A stretch of DNA of 64,000 nucleotides, taken from IMG/VR virus record IMGVR_UViG_3300020731_000011, one strand, 5' to 3'. Positions 13,054 through 25,481 of the stretch are shown piece after piece. The notes beneath the pieces are model-generated. The model was given only the letters and a program-made list of their open reading frames with translations, was not told where the DNA came from and made no database searches. The DNA is from a virus. The translations under genes and the position numbers were made by a program. Each line of letters starts with the position of its first letter. Positions within the stretch are counted from its first letter, which is position 1.

Positions 13054-13215
13054 ATGGAAAATCAACGCGCATCAATACAGATAGATAAAACTCTTCACAG
13101 CATTTTAAAAAAACACTGTAAGGCTAATTGTTTGATTCTTGGAGCATTAGTTGAAAAACTTATTAAAGATAAATTACAAAAAGATGGCTATAGTATACCA
13201 ACATCACAGGATTGA
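13054..13215 (+). CDS. small ribbon-helix-helix-like DNA-binding protein (not in ORF track)
   Basis: MENQRASIQIDKTLHSILKKHCKAN...LVEKLI, 53 aa; ATATTTAT box at 13040; overlaps the start of the endonuclease gene. Confidence 0.55.
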   Translation: MENQRASIQIDKTLHSILKKHCKANCLILGALVEKLIKDKLQKDGYSIPTSQD

Positions 13216-13798
13216 TACAAATCAGATATTTTATATAGGAATAGGTAAAAGTGAAAAGAGAGCTTTTGATAAAAAAAGTAGAGGAAAAACTTGGAGAGAT
13301 TATATAAAAAATCATGAATACGCTATAAAAATTTTATATAATAATATTTCTTGGGAAGAGGCTTGTGAGATAGAAAAGAAATTAATAAAAGAAATAGGTC
13401 GTAGAGATTTAGGATTAGGTCCATTAGTAAATCTTACAGATGGAGGAGATGGCGCTCCAAATTTATCTGAGGAATCTAGAGTTAAAATGGCTTCTCAAAA
13501 GGGAAAATTTGGAGAATTAAATTCCTTTTATGGCAAAAAACATTTTGGAGATTTATCTAGATTTGGAATTCAGAATAAAGGTAGAACTACTTGGATGAAG
13601 GGCAAAAAACATTCTGGAGATTTATCTAGATTTGGAATTCAGAATAAAGGCAGAATTTCTCATAATTCAAATTCTATTTGTATTAATAAAGACGGTAAAA
13701 ATAAGTATATTCAAAAACAAAATTTAGAAGACTATATCCATATTGGATGGTCTTTGGGTGGAAAAAGCAAATTAAAAAACAATCAAAATAGATTATGA
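13184..13798 (+). mobile_element. GIY-YIG-like homing endonuclease with NUMOD3-type repeats
   Basis: VYQH...FYIGIGK, EKKLI, NLTDGGDG; duplicated GKKHxGDLSRFGIQNKG; probable start ATG 13184. Confidence 0.75.
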
Positions 13799-15444
13799 GC
13801 GAAACAAAACATTTAATAGGGACAGAACTTAAAGAGCAACTTCTTGCTGGAATTAATAAACTCAATGATATAGTATCATCAACACTCGGTCCAGGAGGTC
13901 GCACAGTATTAATACGTGAACCTTATGGTGAAGTAAAAGCCACAAAAGACGGAGTAACTTGCTCAAAGGCCTTTAATAGACTTGAAAATGATATAGAAGA
14001 TCTTGGAGCACAGATGGTAAAACAAGTATCAATTAAATCAGCAAATGAGGCCGGTGATGGTACAACAACATCTACATTACTTGCAACAAAGATGATTCAA
14101 GGGGGAATGAAGACTATACGTCAAGGAGTTAATGCAGTAGAAGTTAAGCACGGTATTGATAAGACAGTCTCTATGATTATAGATCAACTTAAATCACTAT
14201 CAGTAGATGTCAGCACAGAAGATCAAATTAAACAAGTGGCAACTATCTCAGGTAATAATGATATTGAAGTAGGAGAGCTGATTTCTGCTGCTATAGATAA
14301 AGTTGGTCGTGAAGGTATTGTGACTATTGAAGAATCTAAGACCGGTGAAACTACTCTTGAAGTAGTTGAAGGTATGCAATTTGATCGTGGATATAAGAGT
14401 CCATATTTTGTGACTAATAATACCACAATGAATGCAGTACTAGATGATTGCTATATTATGCTCTATGATGGTCGTATTCAAACTGCAGCTGAGATGATTC
14501 CATTTCTACAGAAAGCAAATACTGAAAATAGATCACTTCTAGTAATTGCAGAAGACTTTGGAGATGAGGCACTCGCACTAATGATCGTAAATAAAATGCG
14601 AAATGTAGTAAAAGTATGTGCAGTAAAAGCACCAGACTTTGGAGATAGAAGAACTTTGATTCTTGAAGATATGGCAATTCTTACTGGAGGTACAGTAATG
14701 TCAAAAAGCAAAGGACATAAACTTGATAAACTCTCATCTTCAGAATTAGATAAATATCTAGGTAAATCACGTCTTGCCACAGTAGCTAAAGAGACTACTA
14801 CAATAGTAGATGGTAAAGGGGATGAGACAGCAATTTCTAATAGAGCAAATGAGATTAAAGAGCAGATAGAAAGTGCAACATCATTTTTTGAAAAAGAGAA
14901 ACTTCAAGAGCGTCTTGGTAAACTTGTAGGTGGAGTTGCTATTATAAATGTAGGTGGAAATTCTGAAATTGAGATCAAAGAAAAGAAAGACAGAGTAGAA
15001 GATGCACTTCTGGCGACTAAAGCCGCACTTGCAGAAGGTATACTTCCAGGCGGTGGTATTGCACTTATCAAAGCATTTATGTCTATAAAGAATAATACTA
15101 TAAATTGGAATTCAAATGAAAAGATTGCTCTTTCTATAGTAGAAACTGCCTGCTATGCGCCATTTAAAACAATTCTATCAAATTCAGGTATTGAGAATTG
15201 GTATGAAATTTTATATAATGTAAATTCTAAAGACGATGTATTTACAACATTTGATGCTAAAAATAGAGCAGTAGTAAATGGTATTGAAGCTGGTCTACTT
15301 GATCCTACAAAAGTAGTAATATCTTCTATAAAAAATGCAGCGAGTGTAGCTGGTACAATACTCACAGTAGATGCAGTGGTACTTGAAAAAAAATCAGATA
15401 AAGAGCAAGACACTCCAGATCCTATGATGGGCATGGGTATGTAA
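13795..15444 (+). CDS. groEL: chaperonin GroEL
   Basis: [42 protein letters not shown]-terminal MMGMGM. Confidence 0.97.
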
Positions 15445-15581: not shown

Positions 15582-16505
15582 ATGAAAGCTGCATTAATAT
15601 CAATAATGAGTAATGTAGGAACTGGGATGAATTCTCAAGGATCTGGATATGGTCTCATATGCGCAAAAATGGTCAAAGATCAAAATCCACAAGATGTAAT
15701 AGATGTCAATCCAGATCCTAGTACTTGGAGTCAATATGAAAAACTTTATATATGTGAAGGTGTAAATTTTACTGATGGTAGTTTTAATATCCCAGGAGGA
15801 CCTCAGTCAATTCATACTGAGAAGATGCAGGCAATATCTGAATTTGAAGGCGAATTTGAATTTGTTAATAAAACTTTTGATTTTAGAAAATTTAACCAGA
15901 GGATAAAAGTCGATAGTCATAATTGGCCTATAAGCAGTGCTGTAGATTATTTTTCTAAACCAAATCCTAATATTGTAATAGGAGATTCACATTCTCTCTC
16001 AGTCTGGAGACCAGGGTACGCTCTTAGTTTTAATCCAGGTAAAACGCTATATGGTTGGCTTAAACATGCAAATGCACAAGCTATAAATGCAACTAGATCA
16101 GGTAATGTAGTACTTTACTTTGGAAATATTGATACCAGATTCCATCTAGCTCGTCAAGTAGATCCAATTACTGCCACAAAAGAATTATTTACAAAATATG
16201 TAAATTTTGCAAAAGAATTAAATAATCCTATACTAGTTCAATTACTTCCAATAGAACATGAATCTCGTAAAATACCAGGAACTGGATTATATAAAAAGCA
16301 ACCATTTTTTGGATCTAGACAGCAAAGAATGGAATTAAGACAAATAGCAAATGATATTATCGCTAATTCTGGACTTAAATTTATATCATGGCCAGATAGC
16401 TGGATTGATGATGATGGTACTGCGATGTTAGATATTTTAGAATCTAGGCAAAGTGTACATCTCAAACCTAAATATTATCCATACTTACAGGATATATTGT
16501 CTTAA
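15582..16505 (+). CDS. SGNH/GDSL hydrolase-fold protein with an unknown N-terminal domain
   Basis: IVIGDSHS (block I), LYFGNID (block III), SVHL (block V). Confidence 0.6.
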   Translation: MKAALISIMSNVGTGMNSQGSGYGLICAKMVKDQNPQDVIDVNPDPSTWSQYEKLYICEGVNFTDGSFNIPGGPQSIHTEKMQAISEFEGEFEFVNKTFDFRKFNQRIKVDSHNWPISSAVDYFSKPNPNIVIGDSHSLSVWRPGYALSFNPGKTLYGWLKHANAQAINATRSGNVVLYFGNIDTRFHLARQVDPITATKELFTKYVNFAKELNNPILVQLLPIEHESRKIPGTGLYKKQPFFGSRQQRMELRQIANDIIANSGLKFISWPDSWIDDDGTAMLDILESRQSVHLKPKYYPYLQDILS

Positions 16506-16531
16506 TAATAATAATATGATTAAATTCTATT

Positions 16532-16813
16532 ATGAGTAATATATTAGAACAAGCAAATAATATAGTTTTTAAAAGAGGTGAAGAGGGATCTAGACAATAT
16601 GGTCCTATGAAAGAGAGTATGGAAAAAGCCGCTCTATTAGCTTCTACTATGTGCAATAAAGAAATTACAGCAAAAGACATGTATCTTTGTATGGTAGCAT
16701 TAAAAATGTCTAGAGAATCTTATAGTAAAAAGTATGATAATATACTAGATGCTATATCTTATATGGCAGCAATGGTAGATCATTATAAAGAAGATTATAA
16801 TAAAACAAAATAA
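16532..16813 (+). CDS. DUF6378-like nucleotide-metabolism-associated protein
   Basis: ILEQA..IV...R.YG.....M...LKMSRE....KYDN.LD...Y pattern. Confidence 0.6.
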   Translation: MSNILEQANNIVFKRGEEGSRQYGPMKESMEKAALLASTMCNKEITAKDMYLCMVALKMSRESYSKKYDNILDAISYMAAMVDHYKEDYNKTK

Positions 16814-16816
16814 GAT

Positions 16817-17248
16817 ATGAAGATAATTAAAACAAGACCAGTAAAAACTCCAACCAGAGGCACTAATAAAAGTGCAGGTATAGACTTTTATATTCCAAAT
16901 GATTTTGAATGTACAATACTTAGACCAGGAGAAGATATTCTAATTCCATCAGGTATTAAAGCAAATATTCCTACTGGATATATGTTAATGGCAGCAAATA
17001 AAAGTGGAATAGCTACAAAAAATAAGCTCATTAAAGGAGCTGAAATAGTAGATGAGGATTATACCGGAGAAATTCATATTCACGTATTCAATGCAGGTAA
17101 AGCAAATGATATACTTGAAGCAGGTAAAAAAATTATTCAGTTTATACTCGTACCAGTAAATTATGAAGAAGTTGAAGTAGTAGATCAATTAGATTCTATA
17201 GAGACTCAAAGAGGTGAAAGTGGATTTGGAAGTACTGGAATTAACTAA
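16817..17248 (+). CDS. dut: trimeric dUTPase
   Basis: SAGIDF, KSG, IVDEDYTGEI, IIQFIL, RGESGFGSTG. Confidence 0.92.
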   Translation: MKIIKTRPVKTPTRGTNKSAGIDFYIPNDFECTILRPGEDILIPSGIKANIPTGYMLMAANKSGIATKNKLIKGAEIVDEDYTGEIHIHVFNAGKANDILEAGKKIIQFILVPVNYEEVEVVDQLDSIETQRGESGFGSTGIN

Positions 17249-17266: not shown

Positions 17267-17668
17267 GTGTCAAAATTAGATAAAGTTTATCTTAATATTG
17301 CAAAAGAGATAGCCACCCTTTCTCATTGTGAGAGAAATAAAGTAGGTGCACTTTTAATAAAAGATGGAAATATTATAGCATTTGGGTATAATGGTACTCC
17401 TTCTGGAATGGATAATTGCTGTGAAAGAGACAATATTACACTCCCGTATGTTGTACATGCTGAAATGAATGCTATTCTTAAAGCTGCAAAATCAGGATAT
17501 TCAATAAATAATGCCATTTTATATTTGACTCTTAGTCCTTGTATTGAATGTGCAAAATTAATATTACAATCTGGAATAAAAAGAGTACTATATCTAGAGC
17601 AGTATAGAAAAACTGATGGTATAGATTTTTTAAAACAATTTATAGAAATTTCCAAATATGAGATTTAA
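17267..17668 (+). CDS. dCMP deaminase
   Basis: GYNGTPSG, HAEMNA, SPCIECAK. Confidence 0.92.
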   Translation: MSKLDKVYLNIAKEIATLSHCERNKVGALLIKDGNIIAFGYNGTPSGMDNCCERDNITLPYVVHAEMNAILKAAKSGYSINNAILYLTLSPCIECAKLILQSGIKRVLYLEQYRKTDGIDFLKQFIEISKYEI

Positions 17669-19460
17669 AAACGCAAATGAAGCATTTAAAAGTCTTTACT
17701 TAGATATAATGTCTACGGGGGTAGATTTTGCTAGTACTAAAGCAAAATTTAATGCCTCTTTTACTTTAGATAATCCAATGCAGATGATTATCACAGAACC
17801 AGAACGTAAGTTTAATGTAGACTATGCAGAATATGAGTGGCATTGGTATTTAACAGGAAATAGAGACGCATCTGAAATTTCTGAACGTGCTAAGATATGG
17901 AAGAACATGATGATTCCAGGCACTACAGAAGTGAATAGTAATTATGGATTTTTTTGGAATAAAAATGGACAGTTAGATCGTGCTATCCAGGAGCTCAAGA
18001 GCAACCCGAATACAAGAAGAGCGATAGTAGTTCATTACGATATAAATGAGCTAGACAGATATGCCTCAGACACTCCATGTAATGTTGTATTAAACTTCAC
18101 AATAGTTGATGGTCGACTTAATCTTACAGTATTCGCAAGAAGTATTGATTTATGGCTGGGATTCTGCAATGATCAATATACTTTTGCAAAGCTTATGAGT
18201 AAGATTTGTTTTGATACAAATACTTCAATGGGTGAAATGCATTGGTTTATTACAAATCTCCATATCTATAAGAGACATTATGATAAGATCAAACCTCAAA
18301 CTAGCTATATGAAATTCTCTGATATTCCAGATATGGAAACTACAGTATCTCAAAGCTATGTATCATTTAAAAATGAAGAGACTCAAGAATATCAATGTAA
18401 AATAGAAGATAATATATCAGTAGAGCAAGAGGAGTCTAAAGGATCTCAGAGTGTATATAAACTTGAAGATACAGAAAAAATTACAAAGAAGAGTGTGATA
18501 TTAAATGAACAGGGATTTAATCCAATAGCTCTAGAATGTCTTGACTATTATATAGATATTAATCGAAAGACAGAAAAAGTTTTTATAGATACTAAGAAAA
18601 GAGAATTTAATACTGGAGATAAATATATAGATAATGTAAATTTATTTCATAATATTGATAGAAGATATGAGGGCTTTATATTCTTGCTTGAAGATTATTT
18701 TATGCAAGAAAATTCACTCACTTGGGATCTATATAAACCAGTAGCAAATCCTAATTGGGGAATTTATGATTATCTCTTCTTGATCTACTCACATAGAATA
18801 TTTGGATCAGGTACTTCAAATCAATATAATCATGGATATAATAATACTATATTATTGAATTTCCAAAGATTTAATTCTTATGAAGATTTTTATCCTTTTA
18901 TGAAAGCAGATACTGGAAATTTTGTAAGCTGCTGTGTAAATCAACCTCCACGTTATCCACTAAAAGATCTAGTAATAAATCATTTTAGACCTTGGGCAGA
19001 TCATATTATTGATAAAATAAAACCAGGTACTAGTCTTGATGGTATAGTAGATATAATGAATGAGTATAATAGAGATAATAAACTCCATGCATTTAATTTC
19101 CACTATCTTTTAATGGCGGGAGATCTTGCAAATTATGTAAATCTTGACACTAAACTAAATGGTCTATTTGAAATAAATGAGTGGACACACTGTAAATTAG
19201 GTCCTACTGCTACAGCCTCAATGAAAATACTAAAGCCTGGATTTAAATATGGGGATTTTATAAAATTAGCAGAGAGATATAATATGAAACCTATGGATTT
19301 AGAGGATTTGTTATGTGTTTTTTTAAAATATATAAAAAACCCAATTTGGGAATATTATGTAAAGCCGCATCATACTATGAGTGATTTTGAAAATGGTTGG
19401 AATATACCAGGAGTAGAAAAGCATAAATCATACTATAAACATAAATTAAATTTTCAATAA
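17658..19460 (+). CDS. thymidylate-synthase-family (T4 gp42-like hydroxymethylase) domain fused to a helical DNA-glycosylase-like domain
   Basis: N-terminal YAEYEWHWY, EVNSNYG, ELKSNPNTRRA, DTPCN, RSIDLWLGFCND, NLHIYKRHY; C-terminal NLFHNIDR, LMAGDL, LGPTA, DLEDLLCVFLKY. Confidence 0.75.
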   Translation: MRFKNANEAFKSLYLDIMSTGVDFASTKAKFNASFTLDNPMQMIITEPERKFNVDYAEYEWHWYLTGNRDASEISERAKIWKNMMIPGTTEVNSNYGFFWNKNGQLDRAIQELKSNPNTRRAIVVHYDINELDRYASDTPCNVVLNFTIVDGRLNLTVFARSIDLWLGFCNDQYTFAKLMSKICFDTNTSMGEMHWFITNLHIYKRHYDKIKPQTSYMKFSDIPDMETTVSQSYVSFKNEETQEYQCKIEDNISVEQEESKGSQSVYKLEDTEKITKKSVILNEQGFNPIALECLDYYIDINRKTEKVFIDTKKREFNTGDKYIDNVNLFHNIDRRYEGFIFLLEDYFMQENSLTWDLYKPVANPNWGIYDYLFLIYSHRIFGSGTSNQYNHGYNNTILLNFQRFNSYEDFYPFMKADTGNFVSCCVNQPPRYPLKDLVINHFRPWADHIIDKIKPGTSLDGIVDIMNEYNRDNKLHAFNFHYLLMAGDLANYVNLDTKLNGLFEINEWTHCKLGPTATASMKILKPGFKYGDFIKLAERYNMKPMDLEDLLCVFLKYIKNPIWEYYVKPHHTMSDFENGWNIPGVEKHKSYYKHKLNFQ

Positions 19461-19462
19461 GA

Positions 19463-19930
19463 ATGTATGCAAAATCAGTAGAATACAAGAATAAGGAATT
19501 AGGTACATTAGGAGAAAAGATCATAGCAAACTACTTTAACTCAAGAGGTATAATTACAATACTATCTGAAAATCCATTTGATCATGAAAAGGATATGACT
19601 ATAGATGGAAAAAATGTAGAAGTAAAAACTCTAGTACCTATGATTAAAGATAAATCTTTTATGATTAAAAGAAATCAATTAAATAAGATTAGAAATAGTT
19701 ATAGAACTTATTTTATTGCAGTACCTCTTAATAAATTAAATAATCCATATTCTGGAAAAGTGTATGAACTAGATCCTACTAATATGATTACTCAGGATAG
19801 TTTAATAGAACACTTAGTTACTAATAATACATGTATTCCTATAGATCAAGAGGCTATAAAGCATATTCATACTATAACAAATCAGAATACTTTAGATTAT
19901 ATGAAAAATCTTTCAACATCAAACTTTTAA
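19463..19930 (+). CDS. PD-(D/E)XK endonuclease
   Basis: LGEKI...D....VEVKT. Confidence 0.6.
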   Translation: MYAKSVEYKNKELGTLGEKIIANYFNSRGIITILSENPFDHEKDMTIDGKNVEVKTLVPMIKDKSFMIKRNQLNKIRNSYRTYFIAVPLNKLNNPYSGKVYELDPTNMITQDSLIEHLVTNNTCIPIDQEAIKHIHTITNQNTLDYMKNLSTSNF

Positions 19931-21650: not shown

Positions 21651-23093
21651 ATGACAAATACAGGTTACATTAAAAAAGAAGATAGGAAAAAGATCCTATT
21701 TTTAGGTGATGATCTTAGATTTTTTAGCGGTATTGCTACTATGTCTAAAGAAATAGTTTTAGGTACTGCTCATATATTTAACTGGGTTCAAATAGCTGGA
21801 GGAATGAACCATCCAGACAAAGGTAAGAGACTCGATCTTTCAACAGATACAGATAGTATTTTAGGAATTGATAATTCTTCTGTAATATTATATCCTACTG
21901 ATGGATATGGAAATCCAGATCTAATACGTCAAATATTACAAATAGAAAAGCCAGATGCTATATTAATATTTACTGATCCTAGATATTATACTTGGCTTTT
22001 TGATATGGAAGCTGAGATTAGAAAAACCACCCCCCTAATATATCTAAGTATATGGGATAATTTTCCAGCTCCTCTATATAATAAATCATATTATGAATCA
22101 TGTGATACTTTCATGTGCATTTCAAAGCAGACAAAATTAATAACAGAGATGGTGCTTGATTCTCTTGCAAAAGAGAAGATAATAGAATATATACCACATG
22201 GAATTAATGAGAATATCTTTAAACCAATCACAGAATATTCTCCTGAGTATAATGATATGATAACACTTAAAAAATCTATATTTGGTGATTTCGATCCAGA
22301 ATTTGTACTTTTATACAATGCTCGTAATATTCGTAGAAAATCTACTTCAGATCTGATTGCAGCCTGGTCTCACTTTACGGATTCTATAGGCAAAGAGAAT
22401 GCAAAGAAATGTGCACTACTACTGCATACTCATAAAACTGATGAGAATGGTACTGATCTACCTGTAGTTATAGAATTACTATGTGATCCAGAGTATCAGA
22501 AAGTATATTTTGCAGATGGTGCATATAGTCCAGATCAAATGAATTTGCTATATAATATTGCAGACGGAACTGCTCTAGTAAGTTCTAATGAGGGTTGGGG
22601 TCTATCTTTGACAGAGTCTATGATGGCAGGTAAAATGATAATTGCAAACGTTACTGGAGGTATGCAAGATCAAATGAGATTTGTAGATGATCAAGGTCAG
22701 TGGTTTACTCCTTCTACAGAACTACCATCTAATCATCAAGGCGCTTTAAAAGATCATGGCGCATGGGCAATTCCAGTATTCCCTTCTAATTTAAGTCTAG
22801 TAGGTAGTCTGCCTACTCCATATATTTGGGATGATAGGTGCGATTTTAGGGACATTTCTACCGCAATCCATTATCTATATAACATAGGCCTAGAAGATCG
22901 TCAGAGAATTGGTCTGAGCGCTAGAAAATGGGTTACAGGTGATGAGTCTATGATGAGTGCAAGATGGATGTGTAAGAATGTAATAAATACGATAAATAAG
23001 ACAATTGATAATTTTGAGCCAAGAAAGAAATTTCAATTGATAAAAATTGAATCAATCAAGCCTAAAAGGATTAAACATAAATTAACATACTAA
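21651..23093 (+). CDS. GT-B (GT4-like) glycosyltransferase
   Basis: PHGIN, RNIRRK, LYNIAD, SSNEGWGLS.TE.M..G, NVTGGMQDQ. Confidence 0.88.
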   Translation: MTNTGYIKKEDRKKILFLGDDLRFFSGIATMSKEIVLGTAHIFNWVQIAGGMNHPDKGKRLDLSTDTDSILGIDNSSVILYPTDGYGNPDLIRQILQIEKPDAILIFTDPRYYTWLFDMEAEIRKTTPLIYLSIWDNFPAPLYNKSYYESCDTFMCISKQTKLITEMVLDSLAKEKIIEYIPHGINENIFKPITEYSPEYNDMITLKKSIFGDFDPEFVLLYNARNIRRKSTSDLIAAWSHFTDSIGKENAKKCALLLHTHKTDENGTDLPVVIELLCDPEYQKVYFADGAYSPDQMNLLYNIADGTALVSSNEGWGLSLTESMMAGKMIIANVTGGMQDQMRFVDDQGQWFTPSTELPSNHQGALKDHGAWAIPVFPSNLSLVGSLPTPYIWDDRCDFRDISTAIHYLYNIGLEDRQRIGLSARKWVTGDESMMSARWMCKNVINTINKTIDNFEPRKKFQLIKIESIKPKRIKHKLTY

Positions 23094-23094
23094 T

Positions 23095-24402
23095 ATGATA
23101 AAGCCGTTATGTGTAATATCATGTCCTATTGACACTTATTCAGGATATGGTGCAAGAAGTAGAGATTTTATTAAAGCTCTTTATGAGTCAAAAAAAGATG
23201 AGTGGGATATTAAAGTACTGCCTCAGCGTTGGGGTAATTGCCCATGGGGTTTTATTAATGATCATCAGGAGACTATGGGTTGGATGAATACTCTATTAAT
23301 TTATCAACTTAATCAACAACCAGATTATTGGTGCCAGATCACAGTACCAAATGAATTTCAACCTATAGGTAAACTATATAATTTAGGCGTAACTGCGGGT
23401 ATAGAGACTACTATATGCGATCCTAGTTGGATTCAAGGAGTGAATAAAATGAATTTAACTTTAGTATCATCTGAACATGCTAAACAGGTATTTGAGAATT
23501 CAAAATTTGATCAAAAAGATAATAATACTGGTCAGATAATAGCACATATAAAACTTGAGAAACCAGTAGAAGTTCTATTTGAGGGTATTGATACATCTAA
23601 ATATTTTTATATTGATGATAATAATATCAAAGGTTCTGATTTAGTAGATTCTCTTGATGAGATCAAAGAAAATTTCTGCTTTTTATTTGTAGGTCATTGG
23701 ATGAATGGAGATATCGGAGAAGATAGAAAAAATGTGGGATTAACTATAAAAACTTTCCTTGAGACATTTAAGAATAAGACTAATCCACCGGCTCTGATAT
23801 TAAAGACAGCAAGAGGCACAAATAGTATAATGGATAGAGATGATATTCTTAATAAAATAGATTCAATTAGAAAGACTGTGATAGCTAAAACACTTCCAAA
23901 TGTGTATTTACTTCATGGTGAATTTGGAGATAATGACATGAATGATCTATATAATCATGATAAAATTAAGGTTATGTTAGGTCTAGTAAAAGGCGAAGGG
24001 TATTTTAGACCACTTTCAGAGTTCTTTATGTCTAAAAAGCCAGCATTAGTATCATATTGGTCAGGTCATCTTGATTTTTGTAATGATGAATTTTGTAATT
24101 TTGTCCCAGGAGAACTTAAAGAGATACACCCCTCAGCTCAAGCACAGAATATGCTTATACAAGGATCACAATGGTTTTATCCAAATATGGACTTTGCAGC
24201 TAAGAAGATGCTAGATATGTGGCAGAATTATAAGAATTATGAGGTTAATGCTAAACGTCAATCTAGATATGTATTTGAGAATTTTACATATGATAAAATG
24301 AAAGAAAAACTCAATGAGACTTTAGATAAATTCCCTAAACACGTAGCTTTAAAATTACCCCAACTCAAAAAAATAGAATTACCCGCTTTAAAAAAAATGT
24401 AA
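23095..24402 (+). CDS. GT-B (GT4-like) glycosyltransferase
   Basis: SGYG..SR, FLFVGHW, RKNVG, KGEGYFRPL.EF, WSGHLDF. Confidence 0.8.
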   Translation: MIKPLCVISCPIDTYSGYGARSRDFIKALYESKKDEWDIKVLPQRWGNCPWGFINDHQETMGWMNTLLIYQLNQQPDYWCQITVPNEFQPIGKLYNLGVTAGIETTICDPSWIQGVNKMNLTLVSSEHAKQVFENSKFDQKDNNTGQIIAHIKLEKPVEVLFEGIDTSKYFYIDDNNIKGSDLVDSLDEIKENFCFLFVGHWMNGDIGEDRKNVGLTIKTFLETFKNKTNPPALILKTARGTNSIMDRDDILNKIDSIRKTVIAKTLPNVYLLHGEFGDNDMNDLYNHDKIKVMLGLVKGEGYFRPLSEFFMSKKPALVSYWSGHLDFCNDEFCNFVPGELKEIHPSAQAQNMLIQGSQWFYPNMDFAAKKMLDMWQNYKNYEVNAKRQSRYVFENFTYDKMKEKLNETLDKFPKHVALKLPQLKKIELPALKKM

Positions 24403-24864
24403 ATGATAGATAAATTAACTACTTGTCCAAAATGTGGAGCACTAGAATCTTGCTATACTACTCCTATAAATGAGACTATGAACTCCTATATTTGTTTTCA
24501 ATGTGGGTATCAAACATCTGATTTAATGATAGAAGGAGAATTTGATTTTGAAGAATTTGAGTCCACACTTCCAGAACTTCATAAAGAATGTGCATATGTA
24601 GAAGAAAGTGGTAGAGTTTGGTACCCAGCTACTATAAATATTCCTACAAAAGGCACTGTATTTTTAAATGGTACTTCAAAAGATGATTGCTATTTTTCTG
24701 GAATTAAAACAAAAGAATTGACTAAAGAGGAGGCGCAATCTCCACGTTTTAAAAATCAAACGCATAAATCTGACTCACAGACTATGCAACATTTTGGAAT
24801 AGACGGATTTTTTGATGCTTGTAATTATATAGGATTTTTTGAAATTGAAAATATAGAAGAGTAA
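24403..24864 (+). CDS. zinc-ribbon protein
   Basis: CPKC...CFQCGY. Confidence 0.55.
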   Translation: MIDKLTTCPKCGALESCYTTPINETMNSYICFQCGYQTSDLMIEGEFDFEEFESTLPELHKECAYVEESGRVWYPATINIPTKGTVFLNGTSKDDCYFSGIKTKELTKEEAQSPRFKNQTHKSDSQTMQHFGIDGFFDACNYIGFFEIENIEE

Positions 24865-25481
24865 TGACTCCTACAATTAGTTATGCTATAACAGCATGTA
24901 ATGAACATGAAGAATTAAATAGGTTACTTACCAAGCTATGTGATTATAAATCTGAAAAAGATGAAATAATAATCCAATTAGATACTAATGCATCAGATGA
25001 GGTTAAGATGATAGTGTTTGGTTTTAAAAATCACATAGAAACTCTAATTGAATTTCCATTAAATAAAGATTTTGCCACTTTCAAGAACAATATAAAGAAT
25101 TTTTGTAAAAAGGATTATATTATTTATATAGATGCTGATGAATACTTAAATGAGGATATTATTGAATATCTACCAATGATATTAGAAATGAATCCTGAAG
25201 TAGATCTGTACTATATACCAAGATGGAATACAGTAGAAGGTTTAACAAAGGAGCATATATCTAAATGGGGTTGGAATCTAGATGATCAGAGTAGAATTAA
25301 TTGGCCAGATTTACAAGGCAGAATTTGTAAGAACGTTCCAGAAATACAATGGATCGGTAAAGTCCACGAAAGATTAGTGGGATATAAAGGAGTATCAAGA
25401 TTACCAGATCAATTTTATTTGATACATCCAAAGACAATAGAAAGACAAGAGAAACAAAATAAATTATACGACACAATATGA
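24864..25481 (+). CDS. GT2 glycosyltransferase
   Basis: ISYAITACNE, IDADE, WPD.Q.R, VHE. Confidence 0.85.
   Translation: MTPTISYAITACNEHEELNRLLTKLCDYKSEKDEIIIQLDTNASDEVKMIVFGFKNHIETLIEFPLNKDFATFKNNIKNFCKKDYIIYIDADEYLNEDIIEYLPMILEMNPEVDLYYIPRWNTVEGLTKEHISKWGWNLDDQSRINWPDLQGRICKNVPEIQWIGKVHERLVGYKGVSRLPDQFYLIHPKTIERQEKQNKLYDTI

Follow-up and report, generated by a model that had tools for sequence, protein, structure and literature searches.

What does a phage gain from a gene that joins an enzyme of nucleotide metabolism to a domain resembling DNA glycosylases? The question is raised by the gene at 17658-19460 of a 64,000-nucleotide stretch of viral DNA, hereafter the window, from the IMG/VR record IMGVR_UViG_3300020731_000011, a record of 75.6 kb that is 48% complete. 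An initial annotation, made from the letters of the window, described a hydroxymethylase fused to a glycosylase-fold domain, and we find that both domains do lie in one open frame of 600 residues. It further suggested an undescribed DNA hypermodification system, which our observations support as a candidate, and we propose that the fused gene probably belongs to a kinase-less 5-hydroxymethylcytosine (hmC) hypermodification system. The gene and its parts are

17658..19460, plus strand: fused open reading frame (ORF) P0001, 600 residues, frame open; a thymidylate-synthase (TS)-fold hydroxymethylase, an acidic linker and a helical domain placed in the ADDT superfamily
17658..18302, plus strand: N-domain, residues 1-215; TS family, with a dCMP hydroxymethylase signature
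18303..18482, plus strand: linker, residues 216-275; acidic, variable and poorly conserved in the alignment of homologues
18483..19460, plus strand: C-domain, residues 276-600 (325 residues); all-helical, with a predicted helix-hairpin-helix (HhH)-glycosylase-like fold

The N-domain bears on which base is prepared for modification. Pfam Thymidylat_synt (PF00303) covers residues 27-243 of P0001 at 101.9 bits (E 4.4e-29; curated threshold 24.3). The protein shares little identity with T4 gp42 (phmmer E 9e-16), and the best phage matches, at 45% identity, are annotated as deoxycytidylate 5-hydroxymethyltransferase. The four motif pairs that the initial annotation had drawn with T4 gp42 were recovered in the HMMER alignment to PDB 1B49/1B5E, and the aspartate it had placed at 18171-18173 is there as a GAT codon, encoding Asp172 opposite Asp179 of the T4 enzyme and Asn177 of ThyA. 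A 2026 study of TS homologues from phages, using the residue numbers of E. coli ThyA, associates N177D with a dCMP substrate, and L143D/E with hydroxymethyl rather than methyl products, the acidic residue admitting water, while D169N is the mark of flavin-dependent 5-hydroxy-dCMP synthases, all tested ones of which have Asn there (PMC13326640). The N-domain places Asp138 (18069-18071, motif DTPC) at the L143 position, the nucleophile Cys141 (18078-18080) at C146, Asp164 (18147-18149, motif RSID) at D169 and Asp172 at N177. This Asp/Cys/Asp/Asp is the pattern of T4 gp42, unlike that of a thymidylate synthase or a 5-hydroxy-dCMP synthase. As controls, the dUMP hydroxymethylase PaMx11 gp51 reads D/C/D/N, with Asn at N177, the gp42-like protein of Aeromonas phage 31 reads D/C/D/D, and the td of the same phage reads Cys/Asp/Asn, its L143 column being gapped in the alignment with a Leu just before PPCH in the sequence. 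Judged by these residues, it is well supported that the N-domain is a gp42-type hydroxymethylase, predicted to make 5-hydroxymethyl-dCMP (5hm-dCMP) from dCMP and methylene-tetrahydrofolate.

Were the product instead 5-methyl-dCMP, 5-hydroxy-dCMP or dTMP, the downstream chemistry would start from another base. There is precedent for unexpected products in this family, RB69 gp48 having turned out to make 5-hydroxy-dCMP (PMC13326640), the diagnostic rules rest on few characterised enzymes and the identity to gp42 is low. We nevertheless find another product decidedly unlikely, as the N177 rule, given Asp172, excludes a preference for dUMP, Asp138 accompanies hydroxymethylation, the position at which all tested 5-hydroxy-dCMP synthases have Asn is still an Asp (Asp164), dTMP is already provided by a canonical ThyA, and the closest phage matches carry the hydroxymethyltransferase annotation. 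We also considered, and rejected, action of the TS domain on DNA: the phosphate-binding arginines are kept (RR of NPNTRR, R of RSID), and close relatives encode the hydroxymethylase as a free-standing protein of 213 residues.

The initial annotation had set the cytosine substrate predicted by the aspartate against an adjacent dCMP deaminase and dUTPase, which point to a uracil route. Pfam agrees with both of these neighbouring assignments. The genes that bear on this puzzle, together with the remainder of the gene string, are

15582..16505, plus strand: SGNH-fold partner P0082, 307 residues, heading the same gene string as P0001
16532..16813, plus strand: DUF6378 protein, 93 residues (Pfam E 1.4e-13)
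16817..17248, plus strand: dUTPase, 143 residues (Pfam E 2.4e-24)
17267..17668, plus strand: dCMP deaminase, 133 residues (Pfam E 1.4e-25), its end overlapped by the start of P0001 by 11 nucleotides
G000:C1:2055-3134, same contig, just outside the window: canonical ThyA (298 bits)

The ThyA bears LRPCH and RSSDVPLGLPFN, the canonical residues, and its presence on the contig dissolves the puzzle: as in T4, the deaminase and dUTPase would supply the synthesis of dTMP, leaving the Asp-type enzyme as a gp42-like paralogue that acts on dCMP. The ThyA frame is 371 residues long, with long extra segments relative to the 264-residue E. coli enzyme, and contains no internal stops, so the extra sequence is no obvious intron. 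The DUF6378 gene stays beside the hydroxymethylase in all relatives by synteny, and its product gave no match in a search of PDB sequences.

The C-domain is the part of the protein predicted to act on DNA. The motifs NLFHNIDR, LMAGDL, LGPTA and DLEDLLCVFLKY, picked out in the initial annotation, are present and are invariant or nearly so among 16 metagenomic homologues, over which the mean column identity is 82%. An AlphaFold (AF2) model built from 14 homologues is all-helical (pLDDT 72, pTM 0.74), and when it was compared by VIA-align with 48,161 PDB chains the top entry was 8Z2M, PaMx11 gp46/PUGT, a modest match (Z 7.2, rmsd 4.3, 194 residues aligned) that is followed at Z 5-7 by HhH glycosylases (AGOG, Ogg, EndoIII, AlkA, MutY) and the queuine-salvage enzyme DUF2419. 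In BFVD, Foldseek ranks highest some phage proteins that have not been characterised and one annotated 'amino acid:DNA transferase domain' (E 1e-5 to 8e-4, TM 0.56-0.63; the ADDT-domain protein itself E 1.8e-5, TM 0.56), with an aGPT-Pplase1 protein, HMUDK_hel proteins and the SP10 5-hmdU kinase in lower rows. Foldseek against the PDB returned weak glycosylase rows only (probability 0.5-0.96), with 8Z2M unlisted; the AFDB cluster search returned HMUDK_hel and N-glycosylase entries more weakly, and the ESM Atlas shape search returned only TM values below 0.3. By ESM language-model features the nearest clusters are HMUDK_hel, ADDT and aGPT-Pplase3, at 0.91-0.96, with HMUDK_hel first and accounting for 53 of the 100 matches.

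Sequence profiles give a different answer. The C-domain has no match to the Pfam models for aGPT-Pplase (family definitions following PMC8989533), HMUDK or ADDT; HMUDK_hel (PF18723) was detected neither by hmmscan nor, up to E 1, in the record translated in six frames, the ADDT model PF18724 touches a single one of 56 distant members of the C-domain family (hereafter the C-family; E 1e-3), and a profile search of PDB sequences with the C-family alignment gave no match. The likeness to aGPT-Pplase and 5hmU-kinase-associated domains that the initial annotation had seen thus stands for the fold and the motifs, and fails as membership of the Pfam families named. Given a modest agreement of fold without membership by sequence, we therefore class the C-domain as a predicted new clade near the ADDT/aGPT-Pplase/HMUDK_hel fold group.

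Relatives of the C-domain numbered 63 in a profile search of 1.84 billion representatives and at least 541 in IMG/VR by a motif scan with HRxTGSGxSF. In an alignment of 147 diverse members Gly515 is conserved in 100%, Glu549 (19302-19304) and Cys553 (19314-19316) are each present in 145, and His379, Arg380, Gly383, Ser384, Gly393, Asn396, Phe481 and Asp489 stand at 96-97%. We regard Glu549 and Cys553 as a candidate catalytic pair. In the clade 2 aGPT-Pplases M6 gp51 and ViI gp247 a Cys and a nearby Glu are essential, and trapping experiments support addition of the Cys at C6 and an exocyclic methylene intermediate (PMC8989533); the essential residues in the gp46 structure are Glu243 and Cys247, spaced E-x3-C (PMC11472151). 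The same spacing separates Glu549 from Cys553, and the ends of the structural alignment (model 18-287 against 8Z2M chain 8-256) are compatible with an equivalence of the two pairs.

The structural comparison by itself would also admit a true DNA glycosylase or lyase, or some other DNA-processing or anti-defence enzyme, for example one that removes unmodified or mis-modified bases, with the link to the hydroxymethylase amounting to quality control. AGOG (archaeal 8-oxoG), Ogg, EndoIII, AlkA and DUF2419 do score almost as high as gp46. No glycosylase is more than about 10% identical to the domain, however, nor does any glycosylase Pfam model match, and an invariant Cys four residues past an invariant Glu is the mark of the transferases rather than of HhH glycosylases; in the HhH-GPD family a catalytic Asp, with or without a Lys, follows the hairpin. 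As the constant company of SGNH-like and pyridoxal-phosphate (PLP)-like genes moreover fits a biosynthetic pathway, we consider a glycosylase highly improbable and keep to a catalytic transferase-like domain.

That company was examined at 80 IMG/VR loci with a C-family gene, taking neighbours within 10 kb where the contig allowed. An SGNH-like gene is present at 60 of them, a PLP-like gene at 68 (a conserved protein of 295 residues with a weak Pfam PALP match, PLP-dependent and of fold type II), a TS-family gene at 55, and all three at 52, the cassette genes always sharing the strand of the C-family gene. TS-SGNH-PALP-helical is the most frequent order (29 loci), followed by TS-helical-PALP-SGNH (18 loci). 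Every one of the 55 TS genes reads D/C/D/D, and the C-family is therefore tied to a cytosine, not a uracil, pathway. No gp46-type ADDT was found at the 80 loci, and a P-loop neighbour, of the L033 type, occurs at just one; so far as can be read from these gene neighbourhoods, the cassette would appear to work without a recognisable DNA kinase. The L033 neighbour is a protein of 303 residues with an N-terminal P-loop (L033:8147-9058), lying between an Asp-type TS and an SGNH-like gene and weakly matching thymidylate kinase and AAA families; its role could be that of a kinase for dNMPs or for DNA. The 61-kb L033 contig also carries an intein-containing gene for DNA polymerase III alpha.

The picture is the same in the window. 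The initial annotation had reported no DNA kinase there, and indeed the Walker-A motifs of the window occur only in RecA-like, DnaB-like and helicase/ATPase ORFs; no such kinase was found in the whole 75.6-kb record either, nor was a P-loop gene of the L033 type. The PLP-like gene was likewise sought in the window and the record and not found. In the relatives L010-L027 a PLP-like gene of 295 residues lies between the SGNH-like gene and that for DUF6378 (L012:7704-8558, the same position throughout), and in the window the SGNH and DUF6378 genes are separated by just 26 nucleotides (16505 to 16532). It would seem that the PLP-like gene has been lost from the window lineage, which has the helical domain in its stead, and as this phage is without the PLP-like enzyme of most cassettes, it may make a different product from the three-enzyme cassettes.

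The conserved partner of the C-domain is the SGNH-fold protein encoded at 15582-16505, a separate polypeptide, and this tells against the one-polypeptide pathway that had been suggested for the fused gene. The AF2 model of P0082 is confident (pLDDT 91.6), and its residues 127-305 adopt an SGNH/GDSL esterase or acyltransferase fold (VIA Z up to 12.4), all 50 top structural rows being SGNH esterases or O-acetyltransferases (Foldseek PDB E 1e-4). Asp135-Ser136-His137, Asp184 and His293 are invariant and Asn182 nearly so, corresponding to the block I Ser, block III Asn/Asp and block V His; Pfam gave no match for P0082. Residues 1-125 form a separate alpha/beta domain of no recognised family. We considered likeness of this domain to T4 beta-glucosyltransferase and rejected it, as a profile of 21 N-termini, searched against PDB sequences with E up to 10, did not recover any glucosyltransferase. 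P0082 is homologous to the first 330 residues of P0038, P0046, P0049 and P0080 (719-790 residues; phmmer E 4e-50 to 1e-27), and each of these four proteins ends in a C-family domain. At L031, L032, L033 and L034/35 the SGNH-like gene is immediately upstream of, or fused to, the C-family gene (profile E 1e-64 to 7e-114), and at L007-9 the two genes abut.

Among 50,697 phage genome records the SGNH family occurs in 43, and those examined are T4-like Aeromonas phages, in which it forms the N-terminus of a 795-residue protein with a weak HMUDK_hel match at its C-terminus; in ORF233c of Aeromonas phage 31 the SGNH-like domain is followed by such a region (E 0.0036). Aeromonas phages 31, 44RR2.8t and 25 have an ORF of this kind together with a gp42-like gene. 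ORF233c of that phage (NC_007022, L116:4408-8388) lies directly downstream of a 507-residue gene of the sodium:solute symporter family (Pfam E 7e-53), which is odd for a phage; the symporter may import a precursor.

These fusions raise the alternative that the helical domain is non-catalytic, a DNA-binding, base-recognising targeting module of HMUDK_hel type that serves chiefly to bring the SGNH enzyme to hmC DNA, the product then being an O-acylated hmC. The ranking of HMUDK_hel clusters first by ESM features (53/100), several HMUDK_hel entries among the structural matches, the layout of the SGNH::helical fusions, which resembles kinase::HMUDK_hel, and the weak HMUDK_hel match of ORF233c all speak for such a module. 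The near-absolute retention of the Glu-x3-Cys pair and of a His-Arg...Gly-Ser...His-Gly...Asn block in 147 diverse members points instead to catalysis, the best solved match is a catalytic transferase, gp46, and relatives without the domain still hold the SGNH protein. We therefore think a purely targeting role unlikely and continue with a helical domain that is itself an enzyme.

The fusion that raised the question is not itself required. TS::helical fusions were found in 10 metagenomic protein clusters (578-607 residues; 73-85% identity in the C-domain) and at L004 (96%), and at none of the 80 distant loci. When conservation of the fusion is examined, it thus proves limited to the clade of the window, the two genes being unfused in 80 of 80 distant loci. 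In L005 and L006, 92-99% identical to the window, a 209-residue GIY-YIG/NUMOD3 homing-endonuclease gene (L006:10699-11328) sits exactly between the halves, in the linker region, leaving the hydroxymethylase as a free protein of 213 residues and the C-domain as a separate ORF of 445 residues. At L007-9 the order is SGNH, helical, DUF6378, deaminase and hydroxymethylase, all separate. As the fusion is split in relatives of 92-99% identity and absent from distant loci, we regard it as a lineage-specific packaging variant rather than a mechanistic need. Several marks of mobile DNA lie here as well: the last 35 or so residues of the hydroxymethylase differ around the endonuclease insertion, as expected for a co-conversion tract; the closest relative in the window of the L006 endonuclease is a 215-residue ORF at 13151-13798, upstream of GroEL (49% identity); and at L004 a 227-residue HNH homing-endonuclease gene (L004:4093-4776) lies between the fused gene and the next ORF, flanked by a duplicate of about 100 bp of the 3' end of the C-domain (L004:4852-4953; 94% protein identity over 34 residues). 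The locus of the fused gene is a hot spot for mobile endonucleases.

We propose the following model for this gene set. The N-domain would make 5hm-dCMP from dCMP and methylene-tetrahydrofolate, while dTMP would come from the canonical ThyA, a separate enzyme supplied with substrate through the dCMP deaminase and dUTPase, as in T4. The hmC would then enter DNA at replication, where the C-domain may bind the DNA and flip out the modified base, whereupon Cys553, helped by Glu549, would attack C6, and departure of the 5-substituent would give an exocyclic methylene that is captured by a nucleophile. Such a mechanism has been shown on 5-phosphomethyl-uracil for M6 gp51, ViI gp247 and PaMx11 gp46 (PMC8989533, PMC11472151). 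More weakly, we infer that the SGNH protein stands in the place of a DNA kinase, most likely esterifying the hydroxyl of hmC and so providing the leaving group; alternatively, it might process an ester intermediate. In its full form the model has a large and wholly uncultured set of phages turning hmC in their DNA into an undescribed cytosine derivative without a DNA kinase, through chemistry on the polymer that resembles that of thymidylate synthase: Cys would attack C6, an exocyclic methylene would form, and the SGNH protein would provide a carboxylic ester rather than phosphate as leaving group, the fusion physically coupling synthesis of the handle to its later substitution. This full form is offered tentatively, as a possibility to which we would give rather less than an even chance.

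Several observations weigh against the model. Regarding the C-domain, Pfam and PHROGs gave no match even at E 10, the C-family alignment showed no significant relation by hhalign to gp46 alone or to a 60-member gp46-family alignment, and hmmsearch between the two family profiles was not significant either. The fold match is modest, at Z 7.2 on a model of pLDDT 72, and for helical proteins a Z below 8 can be non-specific. The equivalence of Glu549/Cys553 to gp46 Glu243/Cys247 is inferred from the spacing and the alignment ends, and the sole weak hhalign alignment sets the gp46 motif opposite residues 463-471 instead. Regarding the SGNH protein, enzymes of this class are more often hydrolases than transferases, and relatives at 60-65% identity keep the SGNH-like, PLP-like and hydroxymethylase genes without the C-domain within 35-70 kb, indicating that the SGNH protein therefore has a role independent of it. 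These relatives (L010-L027) retain polA, GroEL, the SGNH-like, PLP-like, DUF6378, deaminase and hydroxymethylase genes, thioredoxin, a PD-(D/E)XK gene and glycosyltransferases, and a C-family gene is absent even over 35-70 kb of record, with none in the five partial records searched. Finally, as the record is 48% complete, a kinase or PLP enzyme could be encoded outside it, and the 80 loci may share descent, in which case the counts are not independent.

Other genes of the window adjoin this set. A GroEL-type chaperonin of 549 residues (13795-15444; Pfam E 1.4e-57) is kept at 65-69% identity and stands beside polA in all relatives of the group. An ORF of 155 residues (19463-19930), kept only in the closest relatives, begins 3 nucleotides past the fused gene and has a D...EVK motif; its language-model features lean to small PD-(D/E)XK nucleases and DpnI-like proteins, and it might be a nuclease that tells modified from unmodified DNA. 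Downstream lies a glycosylation cluster (21651-25481 and on to 31454), with a GT1-like glycosyltransferase gene at 21651-23093, ORFs at 23095-24402 and 24403-24864 and a GT2 gene at 24864-25481, followed by genes for an RmlD-like reductase, a sugar C-methyltransferase and another methyltransferase. As the start of the cluster (21651-25481) is kept at 49-66% identity in relatives without the C-domain, it is not tied to the helical domain.

In the fused gene we see one of the architectures taken by a widespread, uncharacterised gene set, which probably gives phage DNA an undescribed cytosine modification. The C-family had no match in cultured phages, in tblastn searches of three members against 50,697 phage genome records, and in the literature searched we found no description of an hmC pathway using an ADDT-like enzyme with an SGNH partner, the modifications found there being the thymidine pathways, glycosylation and carbamoylation of hmC, 5-hydroxycytosine and carboxymethylcytosine. 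If the model is right, it would bring a new natural DNA base, a new way to activate hmC on DNA and enzymes for hmC-specific labelling and sequencing, and would account for the resistance of a widespread group of environmental phages to restriction and CRISPR. The fusion also offers a compact construct of two genes, 15582-16505 plus 17658-19460.

The thymidine pathways of M6, ViI, PaMx11, SP10 and PhiW-14 use a dUMP hydroxymethylase, a 5-HMUDK kinase, an aGPT-Pplase/ADDT enzyme (PaMx11 gp46, PDB 8Z2M) and tailoring by PLP or FAD enzymes, gp46 being a 5-phosphomethyl-dU glycinyltransferase of solved structure (PMC11472151). By analogy, the present set would likewise have a TS-family hydroxymethylase make the handle and a glycosylase-fold enzyme with a Glu/Cys pair act upon it, the E-x3-C motif occurring in both, and most of the related cassettes also carry a PLP-type enzyme. 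Unlike the thymidine pathways, the base is predicted to be cytosine and not uracil (55/55 linked TS genes of Asp type), an SGNH-fold protein occupies the place of the 5-HMUDK kinase, and the helical domain has no Pfam ADDT, HMUDK_hel or aGPT-Pplase match and no detectable likeness to gp46 in sequence. The 5-HMUDK proteins with HMUDK_hel (PF18723) offer the other parallel, a helical glycosylase-like domain joined to a catalytic domain for a 5-hydroxymethyl pyrimidine, and are nearest by language-model features; here, in contrast, there is no P-loop kinase domain, the fusion partners are TS-fold or SGNH-fold enzymes and PF18723 gives no match. Compared with the related SGNH/PLP/helical cassettes, the window has its helical domain fused to the hydroxymethylase, no PLP-like gene found, and three nucleotide-metabolism genes between the SGNH gene and the fused gene. 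With T4 the window phage shares two TS-fold paralogues, as gp42 and td, one canonical (Leu/Cys/Asp/Asn) and one with Asp in the places of N177 and L143, as well as a dCMP deaminase and a predicted pre-replicative synthesis of 5hm-dCMP. It differs in a hydroxymethylase of about 215 residues, of low identity to gp42, that is fused to a 325-residue domain predicted to act on DNA, and no alpha- or beta-glucosyltransferase of T4 type was identified in the window phage. To our knowledge, all known pyrimidine hypermodifications of the amino-acid or polyamine type made through aGPT-Pplase/ADDT enzymes are on thymine and depend on a DNA kinase; from this locus and its hundreds of relatives one would predict a cytosine counterpart, with another activation step and no kinase.

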